Assembly (NCBI GenBank): GCA_023248635.1
Contig: JAHFED010000015.1
Span: 25,177 to 89,176 of the forward strand
Direction of reading: 5' to 3'
Source of the DNA: Myxococcales bacterium
Lineage (GTDB): Bacteria; Myxococcota; UBA727; VGSZ01
Length of the DNA stretch: 64,000 nucleotides
In this document: positions 17,364-57,222 of the stretch, one piece after another
Layout of the letters: every line of letters starts with the position of its first letter
Position numbering within the stretch: position 1 is the stretch's first letter
Position numbers and translations under genes: made by a program
The notes under the pieces: generated by a model
The model's database searches: none
What the model saw: only the letters and a program-made list of their open reading frames with translations
Told to the model about the DNA's origin: nothing

Positions 17364-17456
17364 GAATTCACCGACAGCGCTGCGCGTGTCGGTGAATTGT
17401 CTACAGGTTCATCGCCTGGCGGCGATGAATCGTCTACCGGTTCATCGCCGGTGGCG
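17364..17456. repeat. Double-hairpin palindromic repeat element, copy 1 (one unit plus a partial unit)
   Basis: The sequence GAATTCACCGACA-GCGCTGCGCG-TGTCGGTGAATT (hairpin A), GTCTACAGG, then TTCATCGCC-TGG-GGCGATGAA (hairpin B) is near-identical to copies at 22842, 30804 and 43087. Confidence 0.9.
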
Positions 17457-17473
17457 CAGCGAGATCGCCAGCG

Positions 17474-18676
17474 TCAGCCAAAGGGTCGCAGCACGCCGGT
17501 GGCGACGGCGACGGCGACGACGGCGACGAGGCCCAGCAGGGGGCCCACCGCGAGCACTGCGGCAGGAGCAGGCCGCGGCTGTTTGCCGAAAAGAAAGAGC
17601 GCCAAGCGAACGACGGGCAATGCCGACAACGCCACCCCCACCATCAGACCCACACTGAGCCAGGGCGTCTCGCACACCCTCGCCAGGCTTTGCCGCACCG
17701 CAAAACCCAGGGTGGGCGGCAAACCGCAGGCCTGGGCCGCAGCAAACACAAGCAGACCACAGCGCCAGGGATGACGACGACCCCAGCCCGAAGCGTCCTC
17801 CCACGTCGCCACCGAGCGCGAAAACACCGGAAGGGCTGCGGCGCCGACGGCCAGCCCCAAGGAACCAAGCGCCGCCGTAAAGCTCGCTGCCACGAGGTCG
17901 ACGCCGAGGCGCGCCGCCGCCAGGGGCAAGAGAGCCTGTTGCACCACCAGCACGCCGAGCAGCCGGCGCAAGGACACCTGACCCAGGGCCACCAAAGGCA
18001 AGCCAAAGAGGCCCAGAGCAAGGGCGACGTCGACGGCTCCGTGCTGCCGGCCGACCAGTGCCCCCAAAGGGGGCCCCAGCGCCACCAGGGCCAAGGGAGC
18101 GCTCACAGCCATCGCCGCCGGCGGAGCACCCTGAAAGAGGTCGACCCGGATCCCCTGCAGCGGCGGCAGACCAAGAACCAGGGCGAGGGCCGCCAACAGA
18201 CACGCTCCGCCGGCGGAGCCCTCGACCACCAGCCCCAAGCCCGCCAACAACACCGCCATCAGCCCCAGCAGGCACGCCTTGGCAGCGGCTTCGGCTTCGG
18301 CGCTGACAGGGGTCGGCGGCGACGTCGTCGGCACCCGCATGGCCAACCCCGCGCTCGCCACCGTCCACAGCGCGATCCAGGCCAGCAGGGCGGCCGGCGA
18401 TGGGGTGAGACCCAGCTTCAAGGTTCCCGATCCGAGCACCAGCGCCAGCGCGGCCCGTTCACCGAGCAGGCCCGGCCCCTCGATGAGAGCAAACACCACC
18501 AGTGCGCCAGCAACGGCCAGCGACGTCGGCGTCAAGGCCCACAGCGCCGCAGCGCAGGCGGCGACGACGACGACGACGACCTGGGGCAGGCGTGCGACCC
18601 GCTTGCGCCCGCCAAGGCCTGCACCAGTGGCCTCCAAGCCCAGCGCGACGAGGGCGGCCAGCAGCAGCACGCCCAT
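17474..18676 (-). CDS. Proton-pumping antiporter-like membrane subunit (NuoN/MrpD-like)
   Basis: It is polytopic (>10 predicted TM helices) and Ala/Leu/Gly-rich like the complex I antiporter subunits. I placed the start at ATG 18676, which lies 2 nt after the upstream gene's stop. The N-terminal 298 aa of the six-frame ORF overlap the upstream gene and look non-coding. Confidence 0.6.
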   Translation of the reverse strand: MGVLLLAALVALGLEATGAGLGGRKRVARLPQVVVVVVAACAAALWALTPTSLAVAGALVVFALIEGPGLLGERAALALVLGSGTLKLGLTPSPAALLAWIALWTVASAGLAMRVPTTSPPTPVSAEAEAAAKACLLGLMAVLLAGLGLVVEGSAGGACLLAALALVLGLPPLQGIRVDLFQGAPPAAMAVSAPLALVALGPPLGALVGRQHGAVDVALALGLFGLPLVALGQVSLRRLLGVLVVQQALLPLAAARLGVDLVAASFTAALGSLGLAVGAAALPVFSRSVATWEDASGWGRRHPWRCGLLVFAAAQACGLPPTLGFAVRQSLARVCETPWLSVGLMVGVALSALPVVRLALFLFGKQPRPAPAAVLAVGPLLGLVAVVAVAVATGVLRPFG

Positions 18677-18678
18677 GC

Positions 18679-20049
18679 TCACGACGCCACCCGCAACACC
18701 GCGTCGTGAGCCAGCGACGCCGCCACCAAGGCCGCCAGGGGCAGGAGCAGACGAATCCCCTGCTGCAACGACACACTGACGGTCTGTTTCAAGCTCGGTC
18801 GCGGCAGGCCGCCCACCCGCAACACCAAGCCGCTGATCCCCACCGCTGCCAACAAGAGGGAGGAAGCGCAGACGCCAGCGGCGACGCCGGTCTCGGGGCC
18901 TTTTCTCAGCAGGCCGGCGAGCGCAGGCCACAGGCCGGTGGCGGTGCCGGGCCCCGGCAGTCCGCACAGCGCCCAGAGGGACATTGGCAAGAGCAGGCCC
19001 AACGAGGGCGCGACCTGCAGCAAGCCCCTGAGCTCGGTGGTGCGCCGGGTCTCGAGGCGCCGCTCCACGGCCTCGACCAGCATCAAGGCCCAAGAAGCGC
19101 TGAATCCCGTCAGCGCCGCCAAGCCCACAGCGACCGGTCCAGCACCGCAGATGGCGACGAGGGCGGTCACCGATCCCAGGGCCCCCAACAGGTGCGCCAC
19201 CATGCGGCGGAGGTCGCGCTCGGCCATCACCAGCGCTCCGCCGATGGCACAACCCACCGCCAATACGCCGGCCAGGGAGGGGATGACCCGTGCCAGAGCT
19301 TCGGCGCCGCCGCCCACCCGCTCCAGGAGGGCAACGGATCGGCACAGCAACACAGCCCCCACCGGCGCCACCATCCCGCCCATCAGACAGGCTGCTGCCA
19401 CGGGGGACTGTTCGAGGGCCGGCAAGGCCCACAGCCCGTGGGGACCCGCCGCCAACCGGACCAGCCCCGGCCCCAGCAGCGCAACCACGACCCAGGCACC
19501 CCCTCCGGTCACCGGCCCCTGCTGGACCAGCACCAAAGCTCCAAGGGCTGCGCCGTCCAACAACAGCCACAGTGCGGCTGCCCTCAAGGTGACAGAGCCG
19601 CGCTCGGGCCCCCCAAAAAGGGCCACCAAGGCAAAGAAGGGAACAGCGGCCACCATCGCAACGGCCGTGGCGGCGACGACGTCGTCGACCAGCACGGCCA
19701 CCAGCGATCCGCTCTCGGCCAGCAAGATGGCGGCGACGTAGGCCTGGAGTCCGTGGCTCACCCGCGGTGCTCCCGCGCGCAGGGCCATCGGCGTCACCCC
19801 GAGGATCACCACCGCCGCCGGCAGGGCCACGCCGGAAAAGCGCAGCGAAGCCGCAACAGGCAGGACGAGCGTGGCGCCAGGAGCCTCAAAGAGCAGGGCC
19901 AGGCCGGGCACCAGGGCCAACAGGCCGCTGACGACGCCGACGGCGCGGAGGGTCAAGCGGTCGTCGGCGGGGACCACCAGCGCGAAGGCGCCCCCCAGCA
20001 GGGGCAGCAACACCATCAGCGCGATGAGCAGGTCAGGCGCCAGGCGCAT
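18679..20049 (-). CDS. NuoM/MrpD-like antiporter subunit
   Basis: The 456-aa polytopic membrane protein has the architecture of the NADH-quinone oxidoreductase chain M / Mrp D family. Confidence 0.65.
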   Translation of the reverse strand: MRLAPDLLIALMVLLPLLGGAFALVVPADDRLTLRAVGVVSGLLALVPGLALLFEAPGATLVLPVAASLRFSGVALPAAVVILGVTPMALRAGAPRVSHGLQAYVAAILLAESGSLVAVLVDDVVAATAVAMVAAVPFFALVALFGGPERGSVTLRAAALWLLLDGAALGALVLVQQGPVTGGGAWVVVALLGPGLVRLAAGPHGLWALPALEQSPVAAACLMGGMVAPVGAVLLCRSVALLERVGGGAEALARVIPSLAGVLAVGCAIGGALVMAERDLRRMVAHLLGALGSVTALVAICGAGPVAVGLAALTGFSASWALMLVEAVERRLETRRTTELRGLLQVAPSLGLLLPMSLWALCGLPGPGTATGLWPALAGLLRKGPETGVAAGVCASSLLLAAVGISGLVLRVGGLPRPSLKQTVSVSLQQGIRLLLPLAALVAASLAHDAVLRVAS

Positions 20050-20052
20050 GTC

Positions 20053-22095
20053 TTAGCCCGTCCCCGGCGTACGGCCGAGCCAGAGCAGGCCGGCGGCAGC
20101 CAACAAAGCGAGGAAGAAAGCCTGCTGAGCGCCACCGTTTTGCAGCAGCCGCAGCCCAAAGGCCGTGACCGCCGCAAAGGCAGCCGGCAGGCGGTGCAGC
20201 ACGACAGACAAGACCGCCGGCACGAGGTTGACCGCCAAGAGGCGCGACAGGCGCTCCACGCTTTCTTGGACGGACCGAGCCACGAGGCTGTCCTGCCCGG
20301 CGAGGCGCGCCAACCAGCGGGCCAGCGCAGCGACCGCGGTTTCGTCGGCGCCTTTTTCTCCCGCAAGCACGCGCCCCCGACCCCGGCGCCACCACAAGGC
20401 CGAGGTCAGCCAGGGCAGCAGCCCAAGCCCCAGCACGAGCAGCGCGAAGGTGGCCTGGCTCAGAGGCGGCGGCGCCTGGGCGGCGATAAAGAGCTCTCGC
20501 ACCGGCGTGCTTTGGACCAAGCTCGGCCGCACAAAGCTCGTCAGCACTGGGTCCAAGCTGAGCTCCCAAGGCAAGAGCTCCAAGAGCCCCTGGGGCACCG
20601 CCAGCAGCGTCAGCGCCGACGCCGCCAGAGCAACGACCCAGGGTGCCAACGTCGACGCCAGACCCGACTCGACGACGTCCGCAGTGGTTGCTTCGGGGCG
20701 CGCTCCAGTGAAGACCAGGTGCAGCGCGCGCCAGCCCGCCAGTCCCACCAGCACCACGCCGAGGACGACGGCGACGACGACGCCCGCGGGGATCCGGGTC
20801 GAAAAGACCGCGGCCTGCACAGCACGGTCGACGACGACGAAGCCGGCGAAGGGGGGGAGGGCGGCGATGCCGGCGGTGAGCAGCAGGCGCGCGGAGTGAG
20901 TGCGGGGGAGCAGGGGCTCGAGGCCTCCCAAGGCCCGGGGATCGCGGGACCCGCTGCGCTCGACCACTTCGGCGAAGGCCCACGGCAGGCCCAAGCCGGC
21001 GCTCATGAGGAAGAGGCCGGCGAAGGCGACACCGACGACGTCTTGGGTGCCGGCGCAGATGGCCATGAGGCCCGAAAAGGCCGCGAGCAGATGGGCGTCG
21101 AGGCGCAGCAGGTCACGCCCGGCCAGGGCGAGCACCCCAGCCCCCAGCAAGGTGAGGGCGCCAACGACGACCAGGCCGTCTTGCACTTCGGGAGACAGCG
21201 CGATGATGGGGTGCAGCCGCAGCAGGAGGATCGCCGCGCAGCCCTGCAGGCCGAGCCCGTGGACCAGGCCCAAGAGCGGGGCGGGGGTGTGGGGATCGGC
21301 GGTGGCGTCGCGCAGCCAGGGCCAGCACAACCAGCCGGCGCGGGAGGCAACGCCGGTCACCAGGCCGATGCCAGCGATGAACCACAGGGTGCGGTGGGCG
21401 AAGCCGTCGAAGGCGCCGCTGCTCAGGCGCTCCCAGGGGGACAGCGCGTCGGCTGCGAGGAGTTGGGTGAAGCTGAGATCCGCCGTCGACGACAACGACG
21501 CCGTCAACGCCGCCAGGGCGACCAGCAGCCCGGCGTCGCCGATGCGCTGGACGCCAAAGAGCTGGATCAGGCCTCCGCCGCCGCCGGCGAGCCCCAAGGC
21601 AAGCGCAACGACGGCCCCTGACAGCGCGGCCGCGGCGACGACGTGCGCGGGGTGGTCCGCCAAGACCACCACCAACACGCTGGCTTCCAGCAGCAGCCCC
21701 GCACCCACCGCCGACGGCGTCACACCGCTGTGGCGCCGCGCCCATCCCAGGGCCAGTCCGACGTTGCCTGCGGCGCCGATGAGGGCCGTGGCCAGCAGCA
21801 GGGGCGCGGTGAGGGGCTCCAGCACCAGCGGAAGGAAGGGGCCCAGGCCGGCGGGTGCGAGATCGGCGCACAAACGGGCACCGACGAAGCCGCCGACGCC
21901 GACATAGCGAAAGCCACCGACCTCGGCCAGAGTGAGCAGGCACGACCCAGCCAGCACGGCGACGACGACGACGACGACGACGACCCCCAGGCTCCGGGTC
22001 CACCTCGGTGCGCGGGCGCTCAAGAACAAGCCGGCTGCCGCCACCAGCAAGAGGGTGGGGAGCAGCGCCAGGGTGGGAAAGGGGAGCTCCTTCAC
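20053..22095 (-). CDS. NuoL/MrpA-like antiporter subunit
   Basis: It is about 680 aa from the GTG at 22095, which overlaps the upstream stop as GTGA. It is polytopic with a long C-terminal extension. The upstream 134 codons of the six-frame ORF are Arg-rich junk. Confidence 0.6.
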   Translation of the reverse strand: MKELPFPTLALLPTLLLVAAAGLFLSARAPRWTRSLGVVVVVVVVAVLAGSCLLTLAEVGGFRYVGVGGFVGARLCADLAPAGLGPFLPLVLEPLTAPLLLATALIGAAGNVGLALGWARRHSGVTPSAVGAGLLLEASVLVVVLADHPAHVVAAAALSGAVVALALGLAGGGGGLIQLFGVQRIGDAGLLVALAALTASLSSTADLSFTQLLAADALSPWERLSSGAFDGFAHRTLWFIAGIGLVTGVASRAGWLCWPWLRDATADPHTPAPLLGLVHGLGLQGCAAILLLRLHPIIALSPEVQDGLVVVGALTLLGAGVLALAGRDLLRLDAHLLAAFSGLMAICAGTQDVVGVAFAGLFLMSAGLGLPWAFAEVVERSGSRDPRALGGLEPLLPRTHSARLLLTAGIAALPPFAGFVVVDRAVQAAVFSTRIPAGVVVAVVLGVVLVGLAGWRALHLVFTGARPEATTADVVESGLASTLAPWVVALAASALTLLAVPQGLLELLPWELSLDPVLTSFVRPSLVQSTPVRELFIAAQAPPPLSQATFALLVLGLGLLPWLTSALWWRRGRGRVLAGEKGADETAVAALARWLARLAGQDSLVARSVQESVERLSRLLAVNLVPAVLSVVLHRLPAAFAAVTAFGLRLLQNGGAQQAFFLALLAAAGLLWLGRTPGTG

Positions 22096-22373
22096 CCGCG
22101 CAGCTCGCGCAACTCGTCGACATGGTCCGCACCCCGGCGGCGGTGAACAGCGACGGCTGCCCCCACGACGACCAGAGCAACGGCCGCGCCGGCAACCACC
22201 AACACGGCGGCGGCGGCGAGCTTGCCTTGGCTGCCCGCGGCGAGGGCCAGCCCCAAGGTGCCCAACTGCGCGCCCAGGGCCACAGCGAGGAGGGAACGCC
22301 GCAAGAGCAGCATGGCCAAGCCCAGGCCCAGCAAGAGCAGTCCGGTGCCGACGCCGACGCCGACGACGTTCAT
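22092..22373 (-). CDS. NuoK/MrpC-like small membrane subunit
   Basis: The 94-aa protein has three TM helices and an ...LLLRRSLLAVALGAQL... motif resembling NuoK/MnhC. It shows ATGA start-stop overlap with the upstream gene and GTGA overlap with the downstream gene. Confidence 0.55.
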   Translation of the reverse strand: MNVVGVGVGTGLLLLGLGLAMLLLRRSLLAVALGAQLGTLGLALAAGSQGKLAAAAVLVVAGAAVALVVVGAAVAVHRRRGADHVDELRELRG

Positions 22374-22825
22374 GCGGCCTCTCGTCGTCGAGCAAGCAGG
22401 AGCACCGCGGGTCCCGCCGACGCCAAGGCCAACAGGGCCAGCAGGGCCGCGTCGCTGGTCGGGCTGCTCGACGTCGTGCGGGACACGACGGCAAGAGGCA
22501 GCGGCCACAGGACGAAGCCCGTCAGGACCACGGGGAGCAGCATCAGCAAACGCCACGGCCGCAGCGTGCGCGGGGGGCGGCCATCGAGATCGACGACGAC
22601 GACACCGGCAGCGACGGGCAGCAGCAGGCCCATGCCTCCCACCAAGAGCAAGATCGCGAGCGCTGGGCCTTGGGTGGCGAGTCCCAACCCCGCACTGCCG
22701 ACGACGACGACCAACACCGAGACCACAGTGCTGCTCAGGCGCGAGGTGCACAGGGCGCCGATGCCCCCGAGGAGGGTGATGAGCGCGACGACGACGACGG
22801 CGGAGAGGGGCACGGCTTCGGGCAC
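22370..22825 (-). CDS. Small polytopic membrane subunit (NuoJ/MnhB-like)
   Basis: It is about 150 aa with 3-4 hydrophobic helices and is the first gene of the five-gene antiporter-like operon. I infer a GTG start, which is immediately downstream of repeat copy 2. Confidence 0.45.
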   Translation of the reverse strand: MPEAVPLSAVVVVALITLLGGIGALCTSRLSSTVVSVLVVVVGSAGLGLATQGPALAILLLVGGMGLLLPVAAGVVVVDLDGRPPRTLRPWRLLMLLPVVLTGFVLWPLPLAVVSRTTSSSPTSDAALLALLALASAGPAVLLLARRREAA

Positions 22826-22841
22826 CGAGCCTTGTACCGGA

Positions 22842-22908
22842 AATTCATCGCCGCCAGGCGATGAACGTGTAGACGATTCACCGACACGCGAAGCGTGTCG
22901 GTGAATTT
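22842..22908. repeat. Double-hairpin palindromic repeat element, copy 2 (inverted orientation)
   Basis: AATTCATCGCC-GCC-AGGCGATGAA CGTGTAGAC GATTCACCGACACGCGAAGCGTGTCGGTGAATT is the reverse complement of the unit at 17364 and sits 17 bp upstream of the antiporter-like operon. Confidence 0.9.
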
Positions 22909-23128
22909 CGCCCGTTGGAGGACATCGCCGGCGGCGCGGCCCTCCGGGGTCAACAATCGCTTGCTGTCGTCGCGACTCGAGCTTTTGCCCGAGCACCGTG
23001 CTTGAGGTTGGATGACGACGAAGAAGCACAGCCCGAGGTCGTTGGCGATCGGGTGTTCTGACGTCCGTCGTGCGTCCGGTGGCGGTGGCTTCGAGGCTGG
23101 GCTGATCTTGGGCTGCGTGGAGGACCTC

Positions 23129-24151
<1,023 letters not shown>

Positions 24152-24255
24152 CCTGCTGATGTTCCCGCCGCGTTGCCCAGCGAGGAGGGAGGAGCTTCGG
24201 ATCCACCGCGGCCCGGAGGTCGACGTGGTCCGAGGTTTTCGGGCATCTTCTTGCC

Positions 24256-25530
24256 ATGCTCGTCGCCGCCCTGACCCTCCTGCTTGCTGCTGCCGATTCG
24301 CCCGGCCTTCCCGCCGCCACGGGTGACGTCACCAGCTTGCCGGTCTTCGTCGACGAAGGGGTGCTGCTCGATGTGCTCAACACCCTGCTGCTGTCGGCGC
24401 AGGAGCCCGGACGTGTGGCCATCATCGTCGATGACACCGATGGCATTCGTCGGCTCTCCCTCGAGCGCAGCCTCGTGCGCACCATGCGCGATCGACGACG
24501 AGAGGAGGTCATCACGCCGGCTCTGGTCAAGGCCTCACTCGACGCCGCCGCCGAGGCCCAGCTCGTGGGGGGGCATGCCCAGGCGGCGACGTCGCTGGCC
24601 GCCGATCACGTGATCACGGCGAGCATCGTGGACCAGGGCGGCAAAGCCGTCTTGCGCCTGCAGTTGCTCTACACCGAGAGCGGTGCAGTGCTGGGCACCC
24701 AGTCCGTCGACGTCGATGGTGCGGCGCAGGCCTCGACGGCCCGCTCCCTCGACGTGCGCACCGCGGCCACCGACCTGGCCGATGTGATCGCCGAGGGGGT
24801 GGAGAACCGCGGTGTCGACGTCAGGACCCACCGCATCGCCGTGGCGCCAGCTCAAGCCACTGGAGCCGCCAAAGAAGCCCGCCTCGATCGCTTCGTGCAA
24901 AGCGAGCTCACGTCCGCCTTGCGCACGCGCGGCTTTCTCGTCGTCGAACGGGCCCGACTCTCGGCGGCGATGGAGCAACTCACCATCCAGGAGCTCACGG
25001 GCACCGAGCGCGTCGCCGAGCTGGGGGCGCTGCTGGGAGCGCAATCCATCGTGTTGGCGCAAGTGTCTGAGGCCGGGACGACCTTCATCATCAGCGCTCG
25101 CGCCGTGGCCATCGACACCAGCGAGGTCCTCGGCGCCGCTTCGGCCACCATCGTTCGTGACGACGTCGTCTCTCTGGCGGCAGTGGAGACGCGCACGCCC
25201 GGAGAGGCCGCGGTGCGCTCCGCCGTCGCGCCGGGCTGGGGACAAGCATTCAATGGCGACGGCGTCAAAGCCGTGCTCTTTGGCATCTCGACCTATGGGG
25301 CGTTGGCGACCACGGTGGGCCTCGGCGTCGGAGCGGGGGCGTCTTTGGCGGGCTACAACGGCATCACCGTCGGCGAAGGCCTCACGGCGGAGGAAGCGGG
25401 CCAAAAAGCCGTCGACCTGCGCAACCAGACCAACGCCCTGCTGACGGCAACAGCGGTGGCGGGAGCGGTGACGGCGTCGGTGTGGTCGCTGAACGTCATC
25501 GACGCGCTCTTGTCGTCGCCCCCCGACTGA
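24256..25530 (+). CDS. Hypothetical exported protein with two internally repeated alpha/beta modules
   Basis: It has a signal-like N-terminus. The modules ...VITASIVDQGGKAVLRLQLLYTESGAVLGTQSV... and ...IVLAQVSEAGTTFIISARAVAIDTSEVLGAAS... resemble each other. The C-terminal segment is hydrophobic and Gly-rich. Confidence 0.5.
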   Translation: MLVAALTLLLAAADSPGLPAATGDVTSLPVFVDEGVLLDVLNTLLLSAQEPGRVAIIVDDTDGIRRLSLERSLVRTMRDRRREEVITPALVKASLDAAAEAQLVGGHAQAATSLAADHVITASIVDQGGKAVLRLQLLYTESGAVLGTQSVDVDGAAQASTARSLDVRTAATDLADVIAEGVENRGVDVRTHRIAVAPAQATGAAKEARLDRFVQSELTSALRTRGFLVVERARLSAAMEQLTIQELTGTERVAELGALLGAQSIVLAQVSEAGTTFIISARAVAIDTSEVLGAASATIVRDDVVSLAAVETRTPGEAAVRSAVAPGWGQAFNGDGVKAVLFGISTYGALATTVGLGVGAGASLAGYNGITVGEGLTAEEAGQKAVDLRNQTNALLTATAVAGAVTASVWSLNVIDALLSSPPD

Positions 25531-25576
25531 GGTTCTTGGGTTGTCGTCTCGTTCACACTGACGTCTGCTGTGCCGC

Positions 25577-27055: not shown

Positions 27056-27102
27056 AGGCGACGGCTCCCAGCGGCGAGCGAGCCTGAAAAAAGCGGTGTA
27101 GC

Positions 27103-30793: not shown

Positions 30794-31016
30794 GGCGGTT
30801 TCCGAATTCACCGACAGCGCTTCGCGTGTCGGTGAATTGTCTACAGGTTCATCGCCTGGCGGCGATGAATTGATTGACCTTCGCCAGGCTTGGTCCTTTC
30901 CTCGATGCCTTCGTTGCGTGCTCGGTGAAGCCGGAGAGGCTGCCCCTGCGCCGCGCCTCGGCCTCGAGGAAATTCCCGGCGTCGGGCTCGATCAATCAAC
31001 AAGGAAACCGCCCTAG
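30790..31016. mobile_element. MITE-like element: 13-bp terminal inverted repeats (TAGGGCGGTTTCC ... GGAAACCGCCCTA) around a 226-bp segment that contains one double-hairpin repeat unit (30804-30872)
   Basis: A perfect 13-bp inverted repeat is read directly from the sequence. It exactly fills the gap between two convergent genes. Both gene stop codons (TAG) are supplied by the repeat termini. Confidence 0.55.
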
Positions 31017-31795: not shown

Positions 31796-31879
31796 GGGTT
31801 GAGATACGCCATCGGCGTGGAGCGCGCTGACTGCGGGCTCCTTCGGCTCAAAGGCTCGGAGCACTGGTAGGGTCCGGCC

Positions 31880-33190: not shown

Positions 33191-33213
33191 TCGCAGCCGC
33201 GTATCCTCGGCGC

Positions 33214-34434: not shown

Positions 34435-34440
34435 GCAACC

Positions 34441-35385: not shown

Positions 35386-35394
35386 TAGTAATGA

Positions 35395-38300
35395 CTATAC
35401 GTAGTCGATGTTCTTTGGCCGACCTGGCGCGCCCGCGACGTTGGGCTTGTGCGCGCCATTGCCGTTGATGCCCTTGCCCCGCGCTGCAGCGACGTCGACC
35501 AGATCGGGCACGTCGACGTCGCCGTAGACGGCCTGCAGCGCAGCGATGCGCCGATCGAGATCGGGGGCGTTACCGCCCAGGTGTTTGCTGCGTTTCAAGC
35601 ACACGAGGCCTTCGCGACCGCTCATCTTGCGCTCGTCGAAGATGACCCCGCGTTCGTACTCGGCGGCGGCCTTCTGACCCCGAGAGGCCGAGGGCGAAAA
35701 GAAGGCCCGCTCGAGGGCGGCCAGAGCGTCGTCGACGCGCCCCTGCTCGAGCTGCACCAAGGCGATGACGTAGAACGAGTCGGCCGAACGGCCGGGGGCC
35801 CGCGCTGCGATCTCGAACTCGGAGATGGCGTCGTCGAGCAGCCCCATCTCCCGATAGGCGATGCCCAGATCGTAGTGGGTCGCGGCGTCGTCTTCGGGGA
35901 CGGTCTCGGCCACACCCTTTTTGAACTGGGAGAGCACCTCGGCCACCGAGACCTGGTGCGGGCCGGAGGTTTCGACGTTGGGCGACAACGCGGCCATGTC
36001 GTCGAGCTGGGCGCCGACCTCGTCGATGAGCTTCTGCTCCCACGGTGCTGGCGGTTCAGGCTCGCCTGCTTCTTTGGCCGCAACGCGCGCGAGCATGTGT
36101 TGCACACGCAGCGAGTCCTCTATGTCCTCGAGGATCGGCGTCAAGATCTCCCGGGCTTCGTCGAGCAGGTCTTGCTGGATGAAGAACTCTGCCTCGGCCA
36201 GCTCGTCGCCGAAGAAGGTGTTGGCGGGGTCGTCTTCGAAGCCCCGAGCGACCTGGAACAGACTGCGGGACTGCGACGGCAGATCGAGGCCCGCGTCTTC
36301 GAAGTCGGCCAAAGGCGCGCTGCTGGCGCCCAGCTGCAACGACGGCGGCGGCGCCGTTTCGATGAGGGCCTCGGCGTCCATCGACGCCAGCGAGGGAATC
36401 TGGTCGTAGCGACCAGTCTCGATCACAGCGAAAGAGCCGGTGACGTCAGAGGCGCCGGCGTCGTCCGACAGGGGCGGCGCGGCAGCCGCGGGACGGGCCG
36501 CCAATATCGCTTTGACGTCGCTGGGCAGGTCGAACTCGTTGGGATCGAACTCGCTGGTGCCCGAGGGCGGCTCATGTTCCGAGCTCGCACGGGGGGCGAC
36601 GAGCGCAGCGCCAAGGCCCACTGCCGGGGTGGCAAAGGAGGGCAGGACCGGGCGCTTCGAGCTCGGCGGCAGCTCGGTTCGAGGCAGGGGCCCAGGCGCC
36701 GACACGGCCTTGCGCTCGCCGGTCTCGATGTTGTCCTCGTCGTCGAAGCCGTGGGGCGACATGGCCGGCGCAGCGACGCCGGCATCGCCGCTGCCGTAGG
36801 CCACGGTGCGCTCATCGAAGCCGTCGTCGTCGGCGCTGAATTCGGCGGGCAGCCGCGGGGGCGGGGGCGGGGTCCAGGCGGGTGCCGGGAGGTCGTCGTC
36901 GACGAAGGCCGCGGCGGGTTCGCTGGGGCTGCGGTCGCCCAGGATGCCCGGTGTGCCGCCAGCGCTCGGCGCCGAGATCGGTCGGGGTCGCGCGGGGGTG
37001 GAGCCGATGGGCAGGGCGTCCTGCACGGCCTGGGCGGCCAAGGCGTCGATTTCGTCGTCGTCAAAGGAACCCGGCGCAGAGCCAAAGGGCGGAGGTGCGG
37101 TCACGGCTGGGAGCGCGAGGCTGACCGTGGCTTGGTCGAAATCGGCGTCTTCTTGTTCGAGCACCAGCTCGTCCGCCGGGAGGCCCTCCGACGACGACGA
37201 CAGCGGCGGTCGCCACCCAGCGGTGTGCATGGCCTCGGGAAGACCGGGAAGACCGGGGTCGTCGGGCATCCCCAGCGCTTCGCGCACCAAGGCATCAGCG
37301 TCAGCGTCGAAGGCGCCGGCTGCGGCGGGCGGCGATGAGGTGGTCGCGGCGCGAGGCGCTCCGGCGGGTTGGCGCGGCAGCTGCGGCATCGGCAAGGCCA
37401 AAGTTTGGACCATGCCTTCGTCGGGGGGCAGCTCGTCGTTGTAAGGCTCGGAGCCGTGGCCGTTGAGCGCGGCACCAGAAGCGTCCAGGGGCGAGGCCAT
37501 CGAAAAGGACGGCGACGCCGACCGCGTTTGGGGTCGGGTGGCGGGTTCGAGGGGCTCGTCGAGGCTCGCGAGCATGTTGGGCATCGCCCCGGGGCGTGCC
37601 TGCAGCATGGTGCGCGGATCGATTCCGTTGTCGGCCGGGCGGCCTCGGATGAGATCGGGACGTCCAGCGGGAGGCGCCGCAAAGGTCGGCAGCGTCGGGG
37701 GCACAGGCTGCGCTACGGGTGAGGAGCGGAGGGCCACCGCCGGAGGAGCCGGGGGTGCCTCTTCGTCGACGACGAAGACCTCACCTTCGCTGGAGAAATC
37801 CCGGCGGGCCGCGGGAGGGACCTGCTTCGTCGCCGCCGTCACCTCGCGGCCACGTGGAGCGTCGCCGCGGGCCAGCTCCGCCCTCCATTCGGCGACCTTG
37901 GGATGGCCCAGCTCTTCACCGCGCAGAATCAGTCGCTTCAGCGTTTCGACGACGGCGGCGGGCTGCTTGGTCTGGGTTTGCAGCTGCTTGAGCTTCTCGA
38001 GCCCCGGGATGTGATCGGGGCGAATGCTGAAGATCTTGTCGAGGTGCTCGATGGCTTTTTCGCGCAGCCCGTACTTCACATAGACGTCGGTCTCGGTGAG
38101 CAGCCGCGCCAACTGATCGTCCTCGGGGCTGGCTTTGGCCACCGTCGTCGCCCGCGGCACCACCACCGCCAACGACGCCGACCGCAGCCCTAGCGCAGTC
38201 TCGGCGTCGTCGTCGCCGGGGCTGAGCTCCAACACGCGCTCCCACGCCGTACGGGCGTTGAACGAGTCGTTGTTGCCCTCGTAGATGCGGGCCATTTCTT

Positions 38301-39078
38301 TGTAGACCGAGATGGTCTTGGGCGTCTGCTCGAGCGCGAGAAAAGCCTTGGCGATGAGGTCGAGCACCTCGAGGTTGCGCGGGTCGAGGCGGAAGCACAT
38401 TTGCAGCTTGGGCAGGGCTTGCTTGGCGTCGCCGCGGGCCATGTAGACATTGGCCAGCTCGCGGGCGACGTCGGTGGCGTTTGGATCCCAGGCGAGGACC
38501 TTTTCGCCTACGCGCAATGCGTCGTCGTGTCTCTGCTGGATCTTCAGGAAGTCGTAGGCCGAGCGAATCTCGGTGTTGGCCTCGAGCATCTGTCCGCTTT
38601 GGGCGAAGAGCTCGGCAACCTTGATGCGGGACTGCAGGTTCTCGGGGTCGAGGTCGACCATCCTCTTGAGGATCCCGAGAGTGTCGCTGCTGCGATCCTG
38701 CTGCTCATAGAGCTGCACGACGTGCTGGTAATGAAGCAGGCACTGCGATCCGTGGTTGAGCTGCTGGTAGAGCTCGGCGAGGCGCAGGTGGATGTCGGGG
38801 TTGGTGCCGTCGATGGTGAGCATCTGCTTGAAGACCGCCACGGCCCTCATGAAGAAGCCCTGCTCTGTGTAGATGTTCGCCGCCCGGTCGTAGTGCTCGA
38901 GCGCTTCCTTGCGCTTGCCCATCTTGACGTGGAGGGTCTCGGCGATCTTGAGCAGCGTCCGGACGTCTTTGCCGTCCTCGGCAATCAGCTTTTGGAACTC
39001 AACGATCGCCTTGTCGTACTTCGAAGCCTGCAGGAGCTTGATCGCGCCGTCATAAACCTTGTCGCGATTGATGGCCAA
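35395..39078 (-). CDS. Large TPR-repeat protein (TPR, ~600-aa Pro/Ala-rich disordered region, TPR); possibly MshN-like
   Basis: N-terminal TPR units (AIVEFQKLIAED...HYDRAANIYTEQG...) and a C-terminal TPR block flank a long low-complexity region. Confidence 0.75.
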   Translation of the reverse strand: MAINRDKVYDGAIKLLQASKYDKAIVEFQKLIAEDGKDVRTLLKIAETLHVKMGKRKEALEHYDRAANIYTEQGFFMRAVAVFKQMLTIDGTNPDIHLRLAELYQQLNHGSQCLLHYQHVVQLYEQQDRSSDTLGILKRMVDLDPENLQSRIKVAELFAQSGQMLEANTEIRSAYDFLKIQQRHDDALRVGEKVLAWDPNATDVARELANVYMARGDAKQALPKLQMCFRLDPRNLEVLDLIAKAFLALEQTPKTISVYKEMARIYEGNNDSFNARTAWERVLELSPGDDDAETALGLRSASLAVVVPRATTVAKASPEDDQLARLLTETDVYVKYGLREKAIEHLDKIFSIRPDHIPGLEKLKQLQTQTKQPAAVVETLKRLILRGEELGHPKVAEWRAELARGDAPRGREVTAATKQVPPAARRDFSSEGEVFVVDEEAPPAPPAVALRSSPVAQPVPPTLPTFAAPPAGRPDLIRGRPADNGIDPRTMLQARPGAMPNMLASLDEPLEPATRPQTRSASPSFSMASPLDASGAALNGHGSEPYNDELPPDEGMVQTLALPMPQLPRQPAGAPRAATTSSPPAAAGAFDADADALVREALGMPDDPGLPGLPEAMHTAGWRPPLSSSSEGLPADELVLEQEDADFDQATVSLALPAVTAPPPFGSAPGSFDDDEIDALAAQAVQDALPIGSTPARPRPISAPSAGGTPGILGDRSPSEPAAAFVDDDLPAPAWTPPPPPRLPAEFSADDDGFDERTVAYGSGDAGVAAPAMSPHGFDDEDNIETGERKAVSAPGPLPRTELPPSSKRPVLPSFATPAVGLGAALVAPRASSEHEPPSGTSEFDPNEFDLPSDVKAILAARPAAAAPPLSDDAGASDVTGSFAVIETGRYDQIPSLASMDAEALIETAPPPSLQLGASSAPLADFEDAGLDLPSQSRSLFQVARGFEDDPANTFFGDELAEAEFFIQQDLLDEAREILTPILEDIEDSLRVQHMLARVAAKEAGEPEPPAPWEQKLIDEVGAQLDDMAALSPNVETSGPHQVSVAEVLSQFKKGVAETVPEDDAATHYDLGIAYREMGLLDDAISEFEIAARAPGRSADSFYVIALVQLEQGRVDDALAALERAFFSPSASRGQKAAAEYERGVIFDERKMSGREGLVCLKRSKHLGGNAPDLDRRIAALQAVYGDVDVPDLVDVAAARGKGINGNGAHKPNVAGAPGRPKNIDYV

Positions 39079-39367
39079 GGCGCGCTCCGAACCTTTCTTC
39101 CAGCCGTCCCGCCGCGTTCGCGGGAAGCACTGAGCAGGATGCTCTGATGTTCAAGAAGCTGGGGTCTTGAAGAATGGGTTTGCGAACGACGGCGACGACG
39201 ACGGCTTCGACGATAGGGGGGGCCTCGGAGCCGGTCAAGCTTGCCACCGCTGGCGGGCGCAGACACGTGTCCGCTTCGGGCGCAAAGCAGGAAGCACTTG
39301 CGCCTGGCCCAAGGGCGCCGGCCCAAGGGCGCAAGGGGCGGAGGTTGCACCGCTCGCACGCCAACCC

Positions 39368-40867
39368 TCAGGGCCCGACGCCTGCCAAGACGACGACGTA
39401 GAAGACGCCTTCTTCGGGGTGCAGGGCCAGGCCGACGCCCAGGGCCGTCGTGTCGATGTCGACCAGGGGTTCGAAGGGGCCCAGCAGCAGGGGATCGTCG
39501 ATGCGGGCCACCAGGGGCAACACCTTGGTGAGGGAGGCGTCGGCTTCGAGGGCGACTTCGCCGATGGGCCCCCCCAGCAGGGTGTCGTCGACGCGCCGAA
39601 TCTCCATCATGCGGCGGGCGAGACGCCGCGCGGCCTCTTGCAGGGTGTCAGAGACCACCAAGGGCGCAAAGCCGCGGCTGGTGCGCAGGGCGTTGGCGTC
39701 GTCGAGCAGCTTTTTCTGCAGCGTGGCGACGTCGCGGGTGGGCGGACGACGTCCCAGCAAGGTGACCAGGGTGATGGTGGGACGACCCAGCGCGTCCTGG
39801 CCGCGGACGACGGCGACGCCCATGTGGGTGACGCCCAGGGACACCAGCTCGAAGCGGTGGGCGGGGCTGTCGGTGAGCGCGCTCCAGGCGTCTTGGAGCG
39901 TGCTGCCGCGGGCCTGCACCTCGCCGAGCCGGATGAAGAGAGCGCGGGGATCGCCGGGGAAGCGCTCATCCAGCAGTTCGCGCGGGCTCTTGCCGTCGAC
40001 GCGGTGGCCCAGGACCCCTCCGAGGCTGCGGGCCCTCTCCGTGGCGGCATCGGTGAGCACCGGTGAGATCTTCAGCGTCTCGAGCAGCTGCTCGTTGCGC
40101 AGGCGTTGCACCAGCGCCTCGGCACGGTGGGACAAAGCGAGGTCATCGTGGCCGGCGTCGGGGAAGAGCACCGCCGGACTCGGGGGCAGGGTCGGTGTGC
40201 CGCGCACATAGGGCCACAGCAGGGCGACTTCGGGGTTGCCGCGCGGTGTGCCATCGCCGCCCACTTCGTCGACGATGACCTCGACGACGTGGCGGCCGAC
40301 TTTGCGCAGGGGCAGGCGGCGGGCCTCGCTTCCTTGCAAGACCCATCGATCGACGAAGCCATCGGGCGAGAGCACGAAGAGCTGAGCGACCCGCGACGCC
40401 GGCACCGTCAAAGCGATGGCCGGCGGCTCTTGTCCAGGACCCGACCACGCCGGCGGCAGCTGGGTGACGCTGATGACGCGCCGCGAGGCCACCACCGCCA
40501 CGCAGGGCCTACCCCCGGGGTGTTCAGCGACGACGAAGCCGACGTGCGAGAGGCCCGCACCCCCAAACAGGGCCGAGACCTGTCGGGCGGCGTCGTCGGG
40601 GGAGGAGGCCAGCACGCCCAACACGCGTCCATCGAAGACGCGGGCGGCGGCGCGTACGTCGTCGTCGATGACAGCATCGGTGTCCCGGGCACACAAGAGC
40701 GCAGCCGCTTCGTCGAGGGCGGGGTCTCGCACCAGCTCGGCGGGGATCCAGGGCGGCAACTCCGCCGACGTCGCCAGCTCCGGCGCCGTCACGCACGACG
40801 AGAGCCCGAGCAGGAGCAGGAAACGTCGCACCAGCCGCAGCATCGGGGCTGCCATCGAGCAACGCAA
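39368..40867 (-). CDS. Hypothetical lipoprotein
   Basis: It carries the signal/lipobox RFLLLLGLSSC. The rest is non-repetitive with no domain assigned. Confidence 0.5.
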   Translation of the reverse strand: MRCSMAAPMLRLVRRFLLLLGLSSCVTAPELATSAELPPWIPAELVRDPALDEAAALLCARDTDAVIDDDVRAAARVFDGRVLGVLASSPDDAARQVSALFGGAGLSHVGFVVAEHPGGRPCVAVVASRRVISVTQLPPAWSGPGQEPPAIALTVPASRVAQLFVLSPDGFVDRWVLQGSEARRLPLRKVGRHVVEVIVDEVGGDGTPRGNPEVALLWPYVRGTPTLPPSPAVLFPDAGHDDLALSHRAEALVQRLRNEQLLETLKISPVLTDAATERARSLGGVLGHRVDGKSPRELLDERFPGDPRALFIRLGEVQARGSTLQDAWSALTDSPAHRFELVSLGVTHMGVAVVRGQDALGRPTITLVTLLGRRPPTRDVATLQKKLLDDANALRTSRGFAPLVVSDTLQEAARRLARRMMEIRRVDDTLLGGPIGEVALEADASLTKVLPLVARIDDPLLLGPFEPLVDIDTTALGVGLALHPEEGVFYVVVLAGVGP

Positions 40868-40942
40868 GAATGCTCAGCGCACGACGAGAGCATTGGGAAA
40901 CCCAGCCCAGACGTCGACGTCGGTGTTCCTCCAGCGCTGCGG

Positions 40943-41593
40943 TCACCGCACCGTCAACGAAGGCAGCAAGCGCGGACCGCCGAGGTCGTCGACCAGGCGC
41001 GCGAGGGTGCGAGCTTCGGCCAGCAGCGCACCCACCTGCCGCAAGCGCACGGCCTCGGCAGAGGGGTTGCCATAGCCGCCGACGACGTCGTCGACGATGC
41101 GCAGCTCCGCCTCGACCTTGGCCATCAGCGCCTCGAAACGGGCGACGCCATCGGCGACGACGGCAGCCTTGTGGGCCGGGGAGCTTTCTGCTTCTTCGCG
41201 GGCTTCGATGAAGGCCACCAACAGGGCCTGGCGCAGGGGAGGCTCGGGGACACCCGCCGTCGTCAGCAGCAGGGCGGCGCGATCAAAGGGGATGCGCACA
41301 AGGCGCCAGGCGTCGTTCAAGGCGGCCGTCTGCTCGACGGCGAAACGTCTTTCGGCGTCGCTCTTGCGCACCGCGCGATCGGGATGCACCACGCGCGTGC
41401 GCTGCAACCACGAGGCCTCGAGGGCTTTTTCGTCGACGACAAAGCGGGGACGATCGAGACCCAACCGGACAAAGGACGACGCTGAGGGGTGGGGTGGCAC
41501 CAGGGCCTTGCAGGAGGGACAAGTCAGCGGCGCCAGGGCGGCGTCGAAGGGAGCCCCGCAGGACCGGCACAGGAGCTCGAGGGACGCGCTCAC
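40943..41593 (-). CDS. J-domain co-chaperone (HscB-like) with an N-terminal Cys4 zinc ribbon
   Basis: CRSCGAPF...CPSC is followed by the J-domain HPD tripeptide (RTRVVHPDRAV) and a C-terminal helical bundle. The inferred GTG start overlaps the upstream stop as GTGA. Confidence 0.5.
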   Translation of the reverse strand: MSASLELLCRSCGAPFDAALAPLTCPSCKALVPPHPSASSFVRLGLDRPRFVVDEKALEASWLQRTRVVHPDRAVRKSDAERRFAVEQTAALNDAWRLVRIPFDRAALLLTTAGVPEPPLRQALLVAFIEAREEAESSPAHKAAVVADGVARFEALMAKVEAELRIVDDVVGGYGNPSAEAVRLRQVGALLAEARTLARLVDDLGGPRLLPSLTVR

Positions 41594-42054
41594 GCCGTAT
41601 CGGGTTCGCGCACGGCCGACAGCAAGGCGTCGATCTTCTGTTCCTCGGGTTTCCACGGGGCCAAGAAGCGCGCTTTGCGTTCGGCGCGGGTGAGGATCAA
41701 AACCGCGGCGCTCGTCGACAAACCCTGCCGGCGGGCCTCCTTCAAAAAGAGGCGGCGCACCGAGAGGCTGCCGATGGCGAACACCGGCATCCCGACCGTC
41801 GCCGCCAGCACCCCATAGATGAGGACCGCATACAGGCCACGCACGTCGAGCAGACCGAAGATGGCGACGCCGGCGGCGCAGCAGGCCAGGGCCACTAGGT
41901 TGCGCAGGCGTCGCAACATCACGAGCTGCTGCAGCAGGCCGGCCACGGTGTCGTCGTCGACCTCGCGCACGCGGCGGTGCCAAGGCTCCACGAACTGATC
42001 CTGCGACTGCGGGGCGAAGGGTGTGGCTTCCAGGAGCGCGTGCTCGTCGGACAT
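41590..42054 (-). CDS. Small membrane protein (2 TM helices)
   Basis: The C-terminal half is hydrophobic (LVALACCAAGVAIFGLL...VLIYGVLAATVGMPVFAIGSL). The start is uncertain; the ATG at 42054 overlaps head-to-head with the ATG of the divergent gene. Confidence 0.4.
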   Translation of the reverse strand: MSDEHALLEATPFAPQSQDQFVEPWHRRVREVDDDTVAGLLQQLVMLRRLRNLVALACCAAGVAIFGLLDVRGLYAVLIYGVLAATVGMPVFAIGSLSVRRLFLKEARRQGLSTSAAVLILTRAERKARFLAPWKPEEQKIDALLSAVREPDTA

Positions 42055-42103
42055 GACGCAGCCTACCTCGCTCTCGCCGACGACGTCGTGCCACACTGGC
42101 TGC

Positions 42104-43078
42104 GTGCGGATCCATCCGGGCGGATTTCGACTGGTGCTCGCGGGGCCGAGGGTGTCGAGGTTGCTGCCCTTTCTGCAGGAGAAGGGCTTCGTCGGCGATG
42201 CCTTCGCCAACGGCAAGCAGGCCCTCGAGCACCTGCGAGGCTCGCCCTGCCACGTGCTGTGCATCGAGATCGAGGTCGGCGACATGATGGGCGTCGACCT
42301 GGCCCGCATCGGCAAAGACGAAGGTCTCGTCGGCGCCACCTTGCTCCTGGAAGATCCGATCAAGTCGGGCATGGTGATTTCGGCGTTGGCGCGCGGCATC
42401 GAGGCCTTCGTGCCGGTCCCGCCCGACGAAAAGCTGCTGCTCGACCGGCTCGAGGCCCTGCTGCTGGCCCAATGGGGGCTCGTCGTCAGCCAGCAGCAAG
42501 AGCAGCAGACGCAGGAGCTGGCGCGCGCCCGTCTCGAGCTCGATCAGGCGGGAAAAAAAGCCCAGCAGGCAGAGGAGGTCTTTCGAGAGCTCACCCAGAG
42601 CGCCAGCCGAGACCTCGCCGACGAACGGCGCAAAGTTGCAGAGTTGGAGAGTGAGATCGCGTCGTTGCGCGACCAGCTGGCGACCATGCACCTGCTGGTG
42701 GGGGCAAAGACCGGCAACACCGACGAAGGCCTCTCAACCCGCTCTGGCGAAGGGAGGAGGGTCAGCGGCAGCAACATCCCCGCAGGCGACTTCGACGACG
42801 AGATCACGCTGAAACGGCAGGCCGTGGTGCGAAACGAGCCCACCACCCGGCCCCAGCAGGCTCTCCCCGACGTCGACGACGCGCCGACGCCTCACCTTCC
42901 TCGGGCAGCGGCCCGTCCGGTGAAAAAAGATGGCAGCCCCGGCCAGTCCGCGGAAGCACTTCCAAAGGCACGCAAGAGCCCAGCGACGACGGCCAAGCTC
43001 GATGTGGGCATGTTGAGAGAGCTGGCCGGCATCCCCAAGTCTGGCGAAGAAGAGATCATCTTCGTCGAGGATGACTGA
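42104..43078 (+). CDS. FrzS-like (pseudo)receiver plus coiled-coil protein
   Basis: REC-like FRLVLAGPRVSRLLPFLQEKGF...VLCIEIEVGDMMG is followed by a coiled-coil (QQQEQQTQELARARLELDQAGKKAQQAEE...). The start is ambiguous between 42023, 42053 and 42104. Confidence 0.55.
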   Translation: MRIHPGGFRLVLAGPRVSRLLPFLQEKGFVGDAFANGKQALEHLRGSPCHVLCIEIEVGDMMGVDLARIGKDEGLVGATLLLEDPIKSGMVISALARGIEAFVPVPPDEKLLLDRLEALLLAQWGLVVSQQQEQQTQELARARLELDQAGKKAQQAEEVFRELTQSASRDLADERRKVAELESEIASLRDQLATMHLLVGAKTGNTDEGLSTRSGEGRRVSGSNIPAGDFDDEITLKRQAVVRNEPTTRPQQALPDVDDAPTPHLPRAAARPVKKDGSPGQSAEALPKARKSPATTAKLDVGMLRELAGIPKSGEEEIIFVEDD

Positions 43079-43086
43079 CAACAGCG

Positions 43087-43344
43087 GAATTCACCGACAG
43101 CGCTTCGCGTGTCGGTGAATTGTCTACACGTTCATCGCCTGGCGGCGATGAATTCACCGACGGCTTCGCGTGTCGGTGAATTGTCTACGGGTTCATCGCC
43201 TGGCGGCGATGAATTCACCGACAGCGCTTCGCGTGTCGGTGAATTGTCTACACGTTCATCGCCTGGCGGCGATGAATTCACCGACGGCGCTTCGCGTGTC
43301 GGTGAATTGTCTACGGGTTCATCGCCTGGCGGCGATGAATTCTC
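43087..43344. repeat. Tandem array of four double-hairpin palindromic repeat units (63/61/63/63 bp), copy 4
   Basis: (GAATTCACCGACAGCGCTTCGCGTGTCGGTGAATTGTCTACACGTTCATCGCCTGGCGGCGAT) repeats four times head-to-tail with no unique spacers. Alternating unit variants indicate duplication of a 2-unit block. Confidence 0.95.
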
Positions 43345-57134: not shown

Positions 57135-57222
57135 GCGATCTGCATAGCCAATTTTTGGCCGTGCCAACGGCCAAAACATCAGCACTTTGTGTCCCAAGCG
57201 CCAGTCGTGCGAACACAGCTTC

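Follow-up and report, generated by a model that had tools for sequence, protein, structure and literature searches.

What is a 63-nt palindromic unit that stands at four intergenic loci of a single 64-kb stretch of DNA from an uncultured Myxococcota bacterium, and to which kind of bacterial repeat does it belong? The stretch, called the window below, comprises 64,000 nt of a Myxococcales assembly (GCA_023248635.1, contig JAHFED010000015.1, positions 25,177 to 89,176) and has a GC content of 66.7%. It is part of metagenome contig k141_4919503 (ENA ERZ27276474), identical proteins are present on an NCBI contig, and the nearest named relatives are metagenome-assembled genomes (MAGs) of Myxococcota or 'Deltaproteobacteria'. 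A first-pass annotation had described the unit as a non-coding element resembling repetitive extragenic palindromes (REPs) or miniature inverted-repeat transposable elements (MITEs). Here, we propose that it represents a lineage-specific palindromic repeat family of the REP/BIME type (BIME, bacterial interspersed mosaic element), with a probability of roughly 0.8. This would be a new family of a well-known class, and ordinary in kind.

Copies in the window and structure of the unit

The four loci of the first-pass annotation, each with a unit of about 63 bp made of two hairpins, are present at the positions given there (Table 1), and dinucleotide shuffles of the sequence predict no copies. The 35-mer of hairpin A, searched with up to three mismatches, matches at 17364, 30804, 43087, 43211, and 43274 (shuffles: 0), and two more copies with loop deletions of 1-2 nt, one inverted (22875-22908) and one in the second array unit (43150), were recognized by eye and with nhmmer. 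The 23-mer of hairpin B occurs exactly at 17407, 22844 (minus strand), 30847, 43130, 43191, 43254, and 43317 (shuffles: 0). No further diverged copies were detected in the window by nhmmer with a profile of the unit. Locus 2 is a degenerate symmetrical B-link-A-link-B element, while locus 4 is the fourfold head-to-tail array that had been described for 43087-43344; Tandem Repeats Finder (TRF) reports it as 43087-43342 with a period of 63, 4.1 copies, and 94% matches. Adjacent units of this array share GAATT, and the array is a duplicated two-unit block, in which unit a equals unit c and unit b nearly equals unit d.

The unit of 63 nt consists of hairpin A, a GTCTAC linker, and hairpin B. Hairpin A (35 nt) is composed of the arm GAATTCACCGACA, the loop GCGCTTCGCG, and the arm TGTCGGTGAATT, followed by GTCTACNN, in the same order at all four loci of the window; its stem of 12+3 bp, with GAATTCACCGAC as arm, encloses a loop of 10-12 nt. 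Hairpin B (23 nt; GTTCATCGCC-TGGC-GGCGATGAA) has a stem of 9-11 bp with the arm (GAA)TTCATCGCC and a loop of 4 nt, TGGC, which corrects the three-letter loop TGG given originally. A and B are connected by a conserved 9-nt linker, GTCTACNNN, which on the reverse strand places NN-GTAG-AC directly 5' of hairpin A. The termini of the unit, GAATTCA...TGAATTC, form a 7-bp inverted repeat. Among 18 full units, the mean column identity is 95%, in keeping with the near-identity noted at first; the stems are near-invariant and changes lie in the loop of A and the linker. The arms of A (GAATTCACCGAC) and B (GAATTCATCGCC) differ at two of 12 positions, and the opposite arm compensates both differences (C:G to T:A and A:T to C:G). 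Pairing is thereby kept, and A and B are two variants of one palindrome.

Folded as RNA, one unit forms two separate stable hairpins, as had been predicted, with -42.6 kcal/mol and a z-score of about -6 relative to shuffles; across the foldings z ranges from -5.4 to -7.5, and the whole array of the window reaches -7.5. With DNA parameters, the values are -15.4 kcal/mol for hairpin A and -9.9 kcal/mol for hairpin B. The modules are combined in several ways, namely as single A-link-B units, head-to-tail arrays of up to 5.5 units, an inverted A/A pair, solo B, B-A-B, and decayed as well as A/B chimeric hairpins. Two other classes of repeated structure were considered and rejected: in a CRISPR array spacers would be present, but here the units overlap by GAATT and there are no spacers, and for integron attC sites the GTTRRRY core is missing, the ends being GAATTCA...TGAATTC, the units abut without cassettes, and no integrase is called nearby.

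Table 1. Positions of the palindromic repeat and its parts in the window (A and B, the two hairpins).
Feature	Position	Strand	Basis
Locus 1, hairpin A: GAATTCACCGACA / loop GCGCTGCGCG / TGTCGGTGAATT	17364..17398	+	sequence, pattern match, folding
Locus 1, linker GTCTAC+AG; reverse strand CT-GTAG-AC directly 5' of A	17399..17406	+	
Locus 1, hairpin B: GTTCATCGCC TGGC GGCGATGAA	17407..17429	+	exact 23-mer, folding
Locus 1, second GTCTAC linker and decayed hairpin B (GTTCATCGCCGGTGGCG)	17432..17456	+	TRF period 33, nhmmer
Locus 2, full unit, inverted: B 22844-22866, GTAGAC 22869-22874, A about 22875-22908	22842..22908	-	
Locus 2, beyond A: decayed linker and remnant of B	22909..22939	+	nhmmer 22876-22933, E=1.3e-5
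Locus 3, full unit: A 30804-30838, GTCTAC 30839-30844, B 30847-30869	30804..30872	+	
Locus 4, four-unit head-to-tail array: A 43087, 43150, 43211, 43274; B 43130, 43191, 43254, 43317	43087..43344	+	

Dispersal beyond the window

About 100 kb of the organism were read as DNA. A further 9 kb were walked on the contig of the window, and at about 3 kb from the window end they contain a fifth locus, between convergent genes (L036 5913-5978). It consists, in this order, of B, CCTGTAGAC, A with a reversed loop, A with a forward loop, a decayed B', CCTGGAGAC, and a decayed arm of A, and its inverted A pair folds as one hairpin of 30 bp.

The unit length of 63 nt corresponds to 21 codons and three of the six frames are open, which makes a protein collection searchable with translations of the repeat. 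Such a collection was searched with the concatenated array translations and then, by an exhaustive protein search, with P0218, one of the two proteins that the translations had returned. The other, P0217, is a spurious open reading frame (ORF) of 187 aa that runs through an array of 5.5 units on contig k141_373589 (81.6 kb, same sample). The 20.5 kb around it (L047) contain four separate loci, including a two-unit array and a locus, L047-2, that resembles a decayed symmetrical B-link-A-link-B element. The 5.5-unit array is situated 52 nt upstream of tRNA-Ala(GGC), on the same strand (L047:9902-9977 and 10030-10370). P0218 is encoded on contig k141_3344185, where one locus was found (L048), inside the gene itself. 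The exhaustive search with P0218 yielded P0249 (446 aa), a histidine kinase with a repeat-encoded tail on a contig of 37,249 bp (NCBI and ENA), and this fourth repeat contig is known from the protein alone. A weak match of the repeat-encoded peptide to 29 stretches of P0222 (3239 aa, with dozens of repeats of about 60-70 aa) was rejected as chance, the sequence being unrelated.

In total, at least 11-12 loci with more than 20 units are distributed over four contigs of one sample, 10 of the loci being read as DNA on three contigs and one inferred from P0249. The three contigs read as DNA have an equal GC content (66-67%), which we take as a sign that they belong to the same organism. Mere local duplication, or an artefact of metagenome assembly, is barely credible as an explanation: although the copy numbers within arrays come from short-read assemblies and are not exactly reliable, the unit recurs on separate contigs, and it is also present in an independent Logan assembly, in which a contig of the same organism, L043 (3959-3987), ends inside hairpin A of locus 3. 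Assemblies typically break in this way at multicopy repeats. The earlier proposal of a dispersed family thus holds, given that copies occur about 3 kb past the window and that three more contigs from this sample have them too. The unbiased density is five loci in 73 kb, and by extrapolation only this would amount to several hundred copies per genome. Local duplication does seem to act at a smaller scale. Neighboring units share private variants, such as a TTGG loop in both units of L047-3 and GCAG in three units of L047-4, which indicates that arrays grow by local tandem duplication, and this is how the arrays appear to have been made.

None of the 10 loci read as DNA is bordered by direct repeats, so that no target-site duplications are seen. 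This bears on the possibility of a classical MITE mobilized by a DDE transposase, which shares with the present repeat that it is short, non-coding, and multicopy and which could account for the 7-bp inverted repeat GAATTCA...TGAATTC at the ends. However, a target-site duplication is found at none of 10 loci, the 'terminal repeat' is the shared foot of two hairpins, and precise, overlapping head-to-tail arrays with mosaic fragments are atypical of MITEs, which makes this explanation very improbable. Of the initial description as REP/MITE-like, the REP side is retained on account of the palindrome, the GTAG tag discussed below, the placement at gene ends, the lack of target-site duplications, and the mosaic or tandem clusters, whereas the classical MITE side is not.

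Genomic placement and coding copies

The nine intergenic loci lie between convergent (4), unidirectional (4), or divergent (1) genes, and eight of them are downstream of a gene end. The distance to the nearest gene end is 8 to about 150 nt, and less than 30 nt at five loci. In the window, where each locus is positioned between called genes, the codon-position periodicity of GC vanishes at all four. Locus 1 takes up the whole space between two convergent genes, which end at 17336 (+) and 17474 (-). Locus 2, between divergent genes, precedes by 16 nt the GTG (22825) at which a minus-strand operon for an Mrp-like antiporter is called to start. Locus 3 is located 10 nt past the stop (30793) of a HAD hydrolase gene, between convergent genes, and locus 4 is separated by 8 nt from the preceding stop (43078) and by 14 nt from the ATG (43359) of the ATP-grasp gene that follows. 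Loci 1 and 2, in opposite orientations, bracket the 5.4-kb Mrp-like operon (17474-22825, minus strand) in the manner of the ends of a composite element. The GC skew is about 0 and tracks the gene strands, too flat for the leading strand to be assigned.

No promoters or terminators are predicted in or beside the array of the window. T-runs are absent from the repeat hairpins and present in the terminators of the window at 1139-1175 and 57153-57176, and by sequence the repeats would not be canonical terminators. Each of those two is an intrinsic terminator of the canonical bidirectional type, built from an A-run, a GC stem, and a T-run (as in ACACTAAAAAGAGGGCC-AAA-GGCCCTCTTTTTAGTGT), and they show that ordinary terminators are in use in this organism.

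The first-pass annotation had placed every copy between genes, which is correct for the window but does not extend to the rest of the sample. One and a half units lie in frame inside the gene of the Hpt protein P0218 (L048:4326-4772; repeat 4604-4690), where they encode an insert of 25-30 aa, RSASRVGEFTDTASRVGELSTGSSPGGDEF, between two Hpt helices. The insert is absent in all five of the closest homologues (up to 66% identity). The Pfam Hpt match of P0218 covers profile positions 1-72 with 52.4 bits with the insert and 1-80 with 55 bits after its deletion in silico. In P0249, the ORF continues past the end of the HATPase_c domain with about 70 repeat-encoded residues (EFTDSASRVGEF...GELSPGSSPGGDE...), indicating that an array abuts or replaces the stop codon of that gene. 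A unit of 21 codons with three open frames would explain why genes can at times tolerate a copy.

In these respects, the repeat is reminiscent of Rickettsia palindromic elements (RPEs). Common to both are the in-frame insertion into a conserved gene, here Hpt, in a loop between helices and with the domain unbroken, the size of about 30 residues, and a unit length that is a multiple of three with three open frames. The repeat differs from RPEs in that one internal insertion and one C-terminal extension stand against nine intergenic loci, and there is no sequence similarity.

Comparison with GTAG-tagged REPs, BIMEs, and REPINs

GTAG-tagged REPs have stems of 6-13 bp, one end of which carries an unpaired GTAG (Di Nocera, De Gregorio and Rocco, 2013; PMC3733652). 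The tag is sometimes degenerate (GYAG, GTMG, GTGG), and in the families GTAG-1 and GTAG-2, which comprise the Pseudomonas-type REPs, a dinucleotide separates tag and stem (PMC3733652). These REPs occur as singles, as head-head, tail-tail, or rarely head-tail dimers, and in clusters. They are found mostly where adjacent ORFs are unidirectional or convergent, at a short distance from the 3' end of the upstream ORF, and intragenic copies encoding 20-30 aa are documented (PMC3733652). For the REP-associated tyrosine transposase (RAYT) of E. coli, GTAG has to be present 5' of the foot of the hairpin, and the cut is made at CT (Messing et al., 2012; PMC3479197).

In the present family, a GTAG-like unpaired tetranucleotide is present at the foot of hairpin A only, while hairpin B is untagged. 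On the reverse strand, 12 of 18 units read GTAG, the remaining six being GCAG (three units), GTCG, ATAG, and GTGG, and each of the 10 loci read as DNA holds at least one GTAG tag. GCAG, GTCG, and GTGG are variants listed for GTAG REPs, ATAG not being among the matches (PMC3733652). The commonest form of the linker on this strand is C-CT-GTAG-AC, and CT-GTAG, the majority linker, is the same as the sequence requirement and cut site of the E. coli RAYT (PMC3479197).

The likeness to GTAG REPs thus includes the palindrome itself, the foot tag with its dinucleotide (GTAG-AC), the species-specific sequence, the occurrence as singles, dimers, and clusters, the placement at gene ends, the intragenic copies, and the lack of target-site duplications. 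The differences are the host, since Myxococcota are not listed in the survey (PMC3733652), the long stem of A (12+3 bp), the variable tag, and a standard unit that is a head-to-tail heterodimer of a tagged A and an untagged B. E. coli BIMEs, which are mosaics of Y and Z REPs, resemble the family in that two palindrome variants and conserved linkers are combined in mosaic clusters, and the REPs recognized by TnpA-REP (PMC3479197) resemble it in the GTAG at the hairpin foot and the CT beside the tag in most units. In E. coli BIMEs, however, REPs alternate in orientation and their hairpins are imperfect, whereas the units here are in tandem with perfect hairpins, and the sequences are unrelated. 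Two variants joined by linkers are found here as in BIMEs, in module combinations that vary between loci; alternating orientation is not found, as the arrays are strictly head-to-tail and an inverted A/A pair exists only at L036. That inverted pair, and the decayed symmetrical elements at locus 2 and L047-2, recall REPINs (Bertels and Rainey, 2011; PMC3116915). Of the 10 loci read as DNA, L036 alone has an inverted doublet that forms one long hairpin, the usual unit being a tandem A-link-B.

Lineage restriction and turnover

The closest reachable genome, GCA_030685175.1 (83-87% protein identity; L034 and L044), contains no copy in 42.5 kb, where about three would be expected at the density of the window (Poisson P(0) about 0.05). 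Two other relatives (L041 and L046) contain no copies either, and all relatives together (83-91% protein identity) cover about 60 kb. In L041, whose ATP-grasp protein is 91% identical, a different pair of palindromes, CCCCCTCTCCAGAGGAACTGGAGAGGGGG and CCCCCCTCTCCACTTCCTGTGGAGAGGGGGG, is present upstream of the same gene (122-212), and this suggests that each lineage may own its palindromic repeat family. With no copies in the relatives examined, the family looks lineage-restricted and palindrome families seem to turn over between close lineages, a pattern that has been described for REPs (PMC3733652). The 95% identity between units and the absence from these relatives would fit recent activity.

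Synteny with L034, L044-L046, and L041 breaks at or near repeat loci, and no orthologous empty site could be aligned. Two of the three breakpoints coincide exactly with repeats, namely locus 2, which precedes the gene of 340 aa at 23129, and locus 4, which precedes the ATP-grasp gene (43359). Such breaks could reflect rearrangements mediated by the repeat or, less likely, joins made in assembly.

Wider collections returned few matches. The exact 23-mer of hairpin B has no match in JGI metagenomes or in IMG/VR, while the stems of hairpin A have two unrelated AT-rich matches in JGI metagenomes and no viral match in IMG/VR. Over the window, Rfam gives no match at the gathering threshold, and over the array there are chance-level matches only, of at most 19 bits. 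In the literature searched no such repeat is described, and Myxococcota are not mentioned in REP surveys; as far as this can be tested, the first impression that the repeat belongs to no described family is borne out. With a degenerate pattern of hairpin B (18 specified bases), the matches listed from genome contigs are mostly chance, and two from a Polyangiaceae MAG look meaningful. In this MAG, WDNA12_bin.27, an identical 26-nt hairpin, TGATTCATCGCCTCACGGCGATGAAT, is present on two contigs (L017:2274-2299 and L032:4130-4155), with the same stem as hairpin B and a different loop. On L032, this hairpin is followed after 10 nt by another, whose feet are GAATTC (AATTCGCCGGCGC...GCGCCGGCGAATT), in an echo of the two-hairpin layout.

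Selection by the host offers another account of a repeat with such conserved stems. In one form, the unit would be a cis element, that is, a set of binding sites for a protein or a source of RNA 3' ends, which was multiplied by selection and local duplication and owes its dispersal to ancient recruitment and recombination. The almost invariant stems next to variable loops and linker, the preferred position near stop codons, and the Polyangiaceae hairpin, which hints at a wider conservation of the B stem, all agree with this. However, the relatives have no copies, and one of them has a different palindrome at the same spot; one copy lies in a coding region, another extends an ORF, one is antisense, and one occupies a promoter region; some copies are decayed and others chimeric; and the spacing between arms, 4 nt in one hairpin and 10-12 nt in the other, would not be tolerable for a dimeric protein that binds double-stranded DNA. 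We regard this account as quite improbable, and a reading of the palindromes as operator sites was rejected on their anatomy. In a second form, the repeat would be a domesticated structural module instead of a selfish repeat driven by a RAYT, with hairpin B as the binding site of a conserved host factor of Myxococcota, or the unit tolerated or even used as a codon-phased peptide insert and thus a myxobacterial analogue of RPEs, and with arrays as multi-site platforms at gene ends. This is possible but unlikely, and it is raised because the B stem recurs in a distant Polyangiaceae MAG and the unit is codon-phased.

Origin and spread of the repeat

By analogy with known REPs, we infer a mobilization of RAYT type. 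Copies would be seeded by a single-strand-specific HUH/Y1 enzyme of this type; bound to the folded hairpin and its GTAG guide, the enzyme would cut and rejoin single-stranded DNA and leave no target-site duplication. Local tandem duplication would then lengthen the arrays, and copies would persist mostly just 3' of stop codons, where they presumably do the least harm. Copies that are transcribed would form very stable 3' stem-loops without a U-tract and may probably serve as protectors of mRNA 3' ends or as punctuation of operons.

A related possibility is that the unit is a miniature, PATE-like derivative of an insertion sequence (IS) of the IS200/IS605 type. In this case B would be the subterminal hairpin of the left end and A that of the right end, and the element would be moved by a dimeric TnpA(Y1) from a complete IS elsewhere in the genome instead of a RAYT. 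The unit has a hairpin at either end, the two being related but not identical, which would match the left and right ends of IS608 (PMC3479197), and both the lack of target-site duplications and the precise head-to-tail junctions are in line with it. This derivation is nonetheless unlikely, as no IS200/IS605 transposase gene is called in the approximately 100 kb read, the left flanks have no conserved target tetranucleotide, and the solo B, the inverted A/A pair, B-A-B, and the A/B chimeras are BIME-like mosaics rather than copies of a fixed two-ended element.

Several points weigh against the assignment to REPs or BIMEs mobilized by a RAYT. The tag is not strictly conserved across units and is carried by hairpin A only, and in E. 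coli cleavage is abolished by any single change in GTAG (PMC3479197), while the tag varies here. Head-to-tail units are rare among described REP dimers. One locus occupies a divergent promoter region, and one array runs antisense to the genes beside it. In the 18 units the stems do not vary, which leaves no covariation within the family that could separate a role as RNA from a role as DNA. Array lengths derived from short-read assemblies may be wrong, and the copies were counted on about 100 kb of DNA. Finally, the gene calls for about 100 kb include neither a RAYT nor any Y1 transposase (PF01797). A RAYT is normally encoded by a single-copy gene, and its absence from a stretch of this size therefore says little.

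Other repeats in the window

Long ORFs of the window contain or adjoin further repeats, which have no relation to the hairpin family. These are hexanucleotide runs, namely GAAGGC x41 (49634-49880), a shorter GAAGGC run (55802-55884), and AGAAGG x42 (59021-59272), and tandem repeats of 192 bp and 396 bp that are rich in Cys and Asp codons (50381-50784 and 59643-60429).

Implications

Repeats of the REP/BIME type have been studied mostly in Gamma- and Alphaproteobacteria, and a family from Myxococcota was found neither in the literature searched nor in Rfam. The repeat described here would extend the known host range of REPs and add the layout of a head-to-tail heterodimer, leaving the current understanding of REPs unchanged. 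For this uncultured lineage, the near-identical 63-nt unit can be used as a marker for binning and strain typing. Contig breaks, and two of the three synteny breakpoints, fall at the repeats, which would explain gaps in the assemblies and possible rearrangements of the genome. The repeats also give rise to errors in gene calling, as in the spurious ORF of 187 aa and the extended histidine kinase, whereas the in-frame insertion in Hpt represents a clean case of a repeat that adds a segment to a protein.

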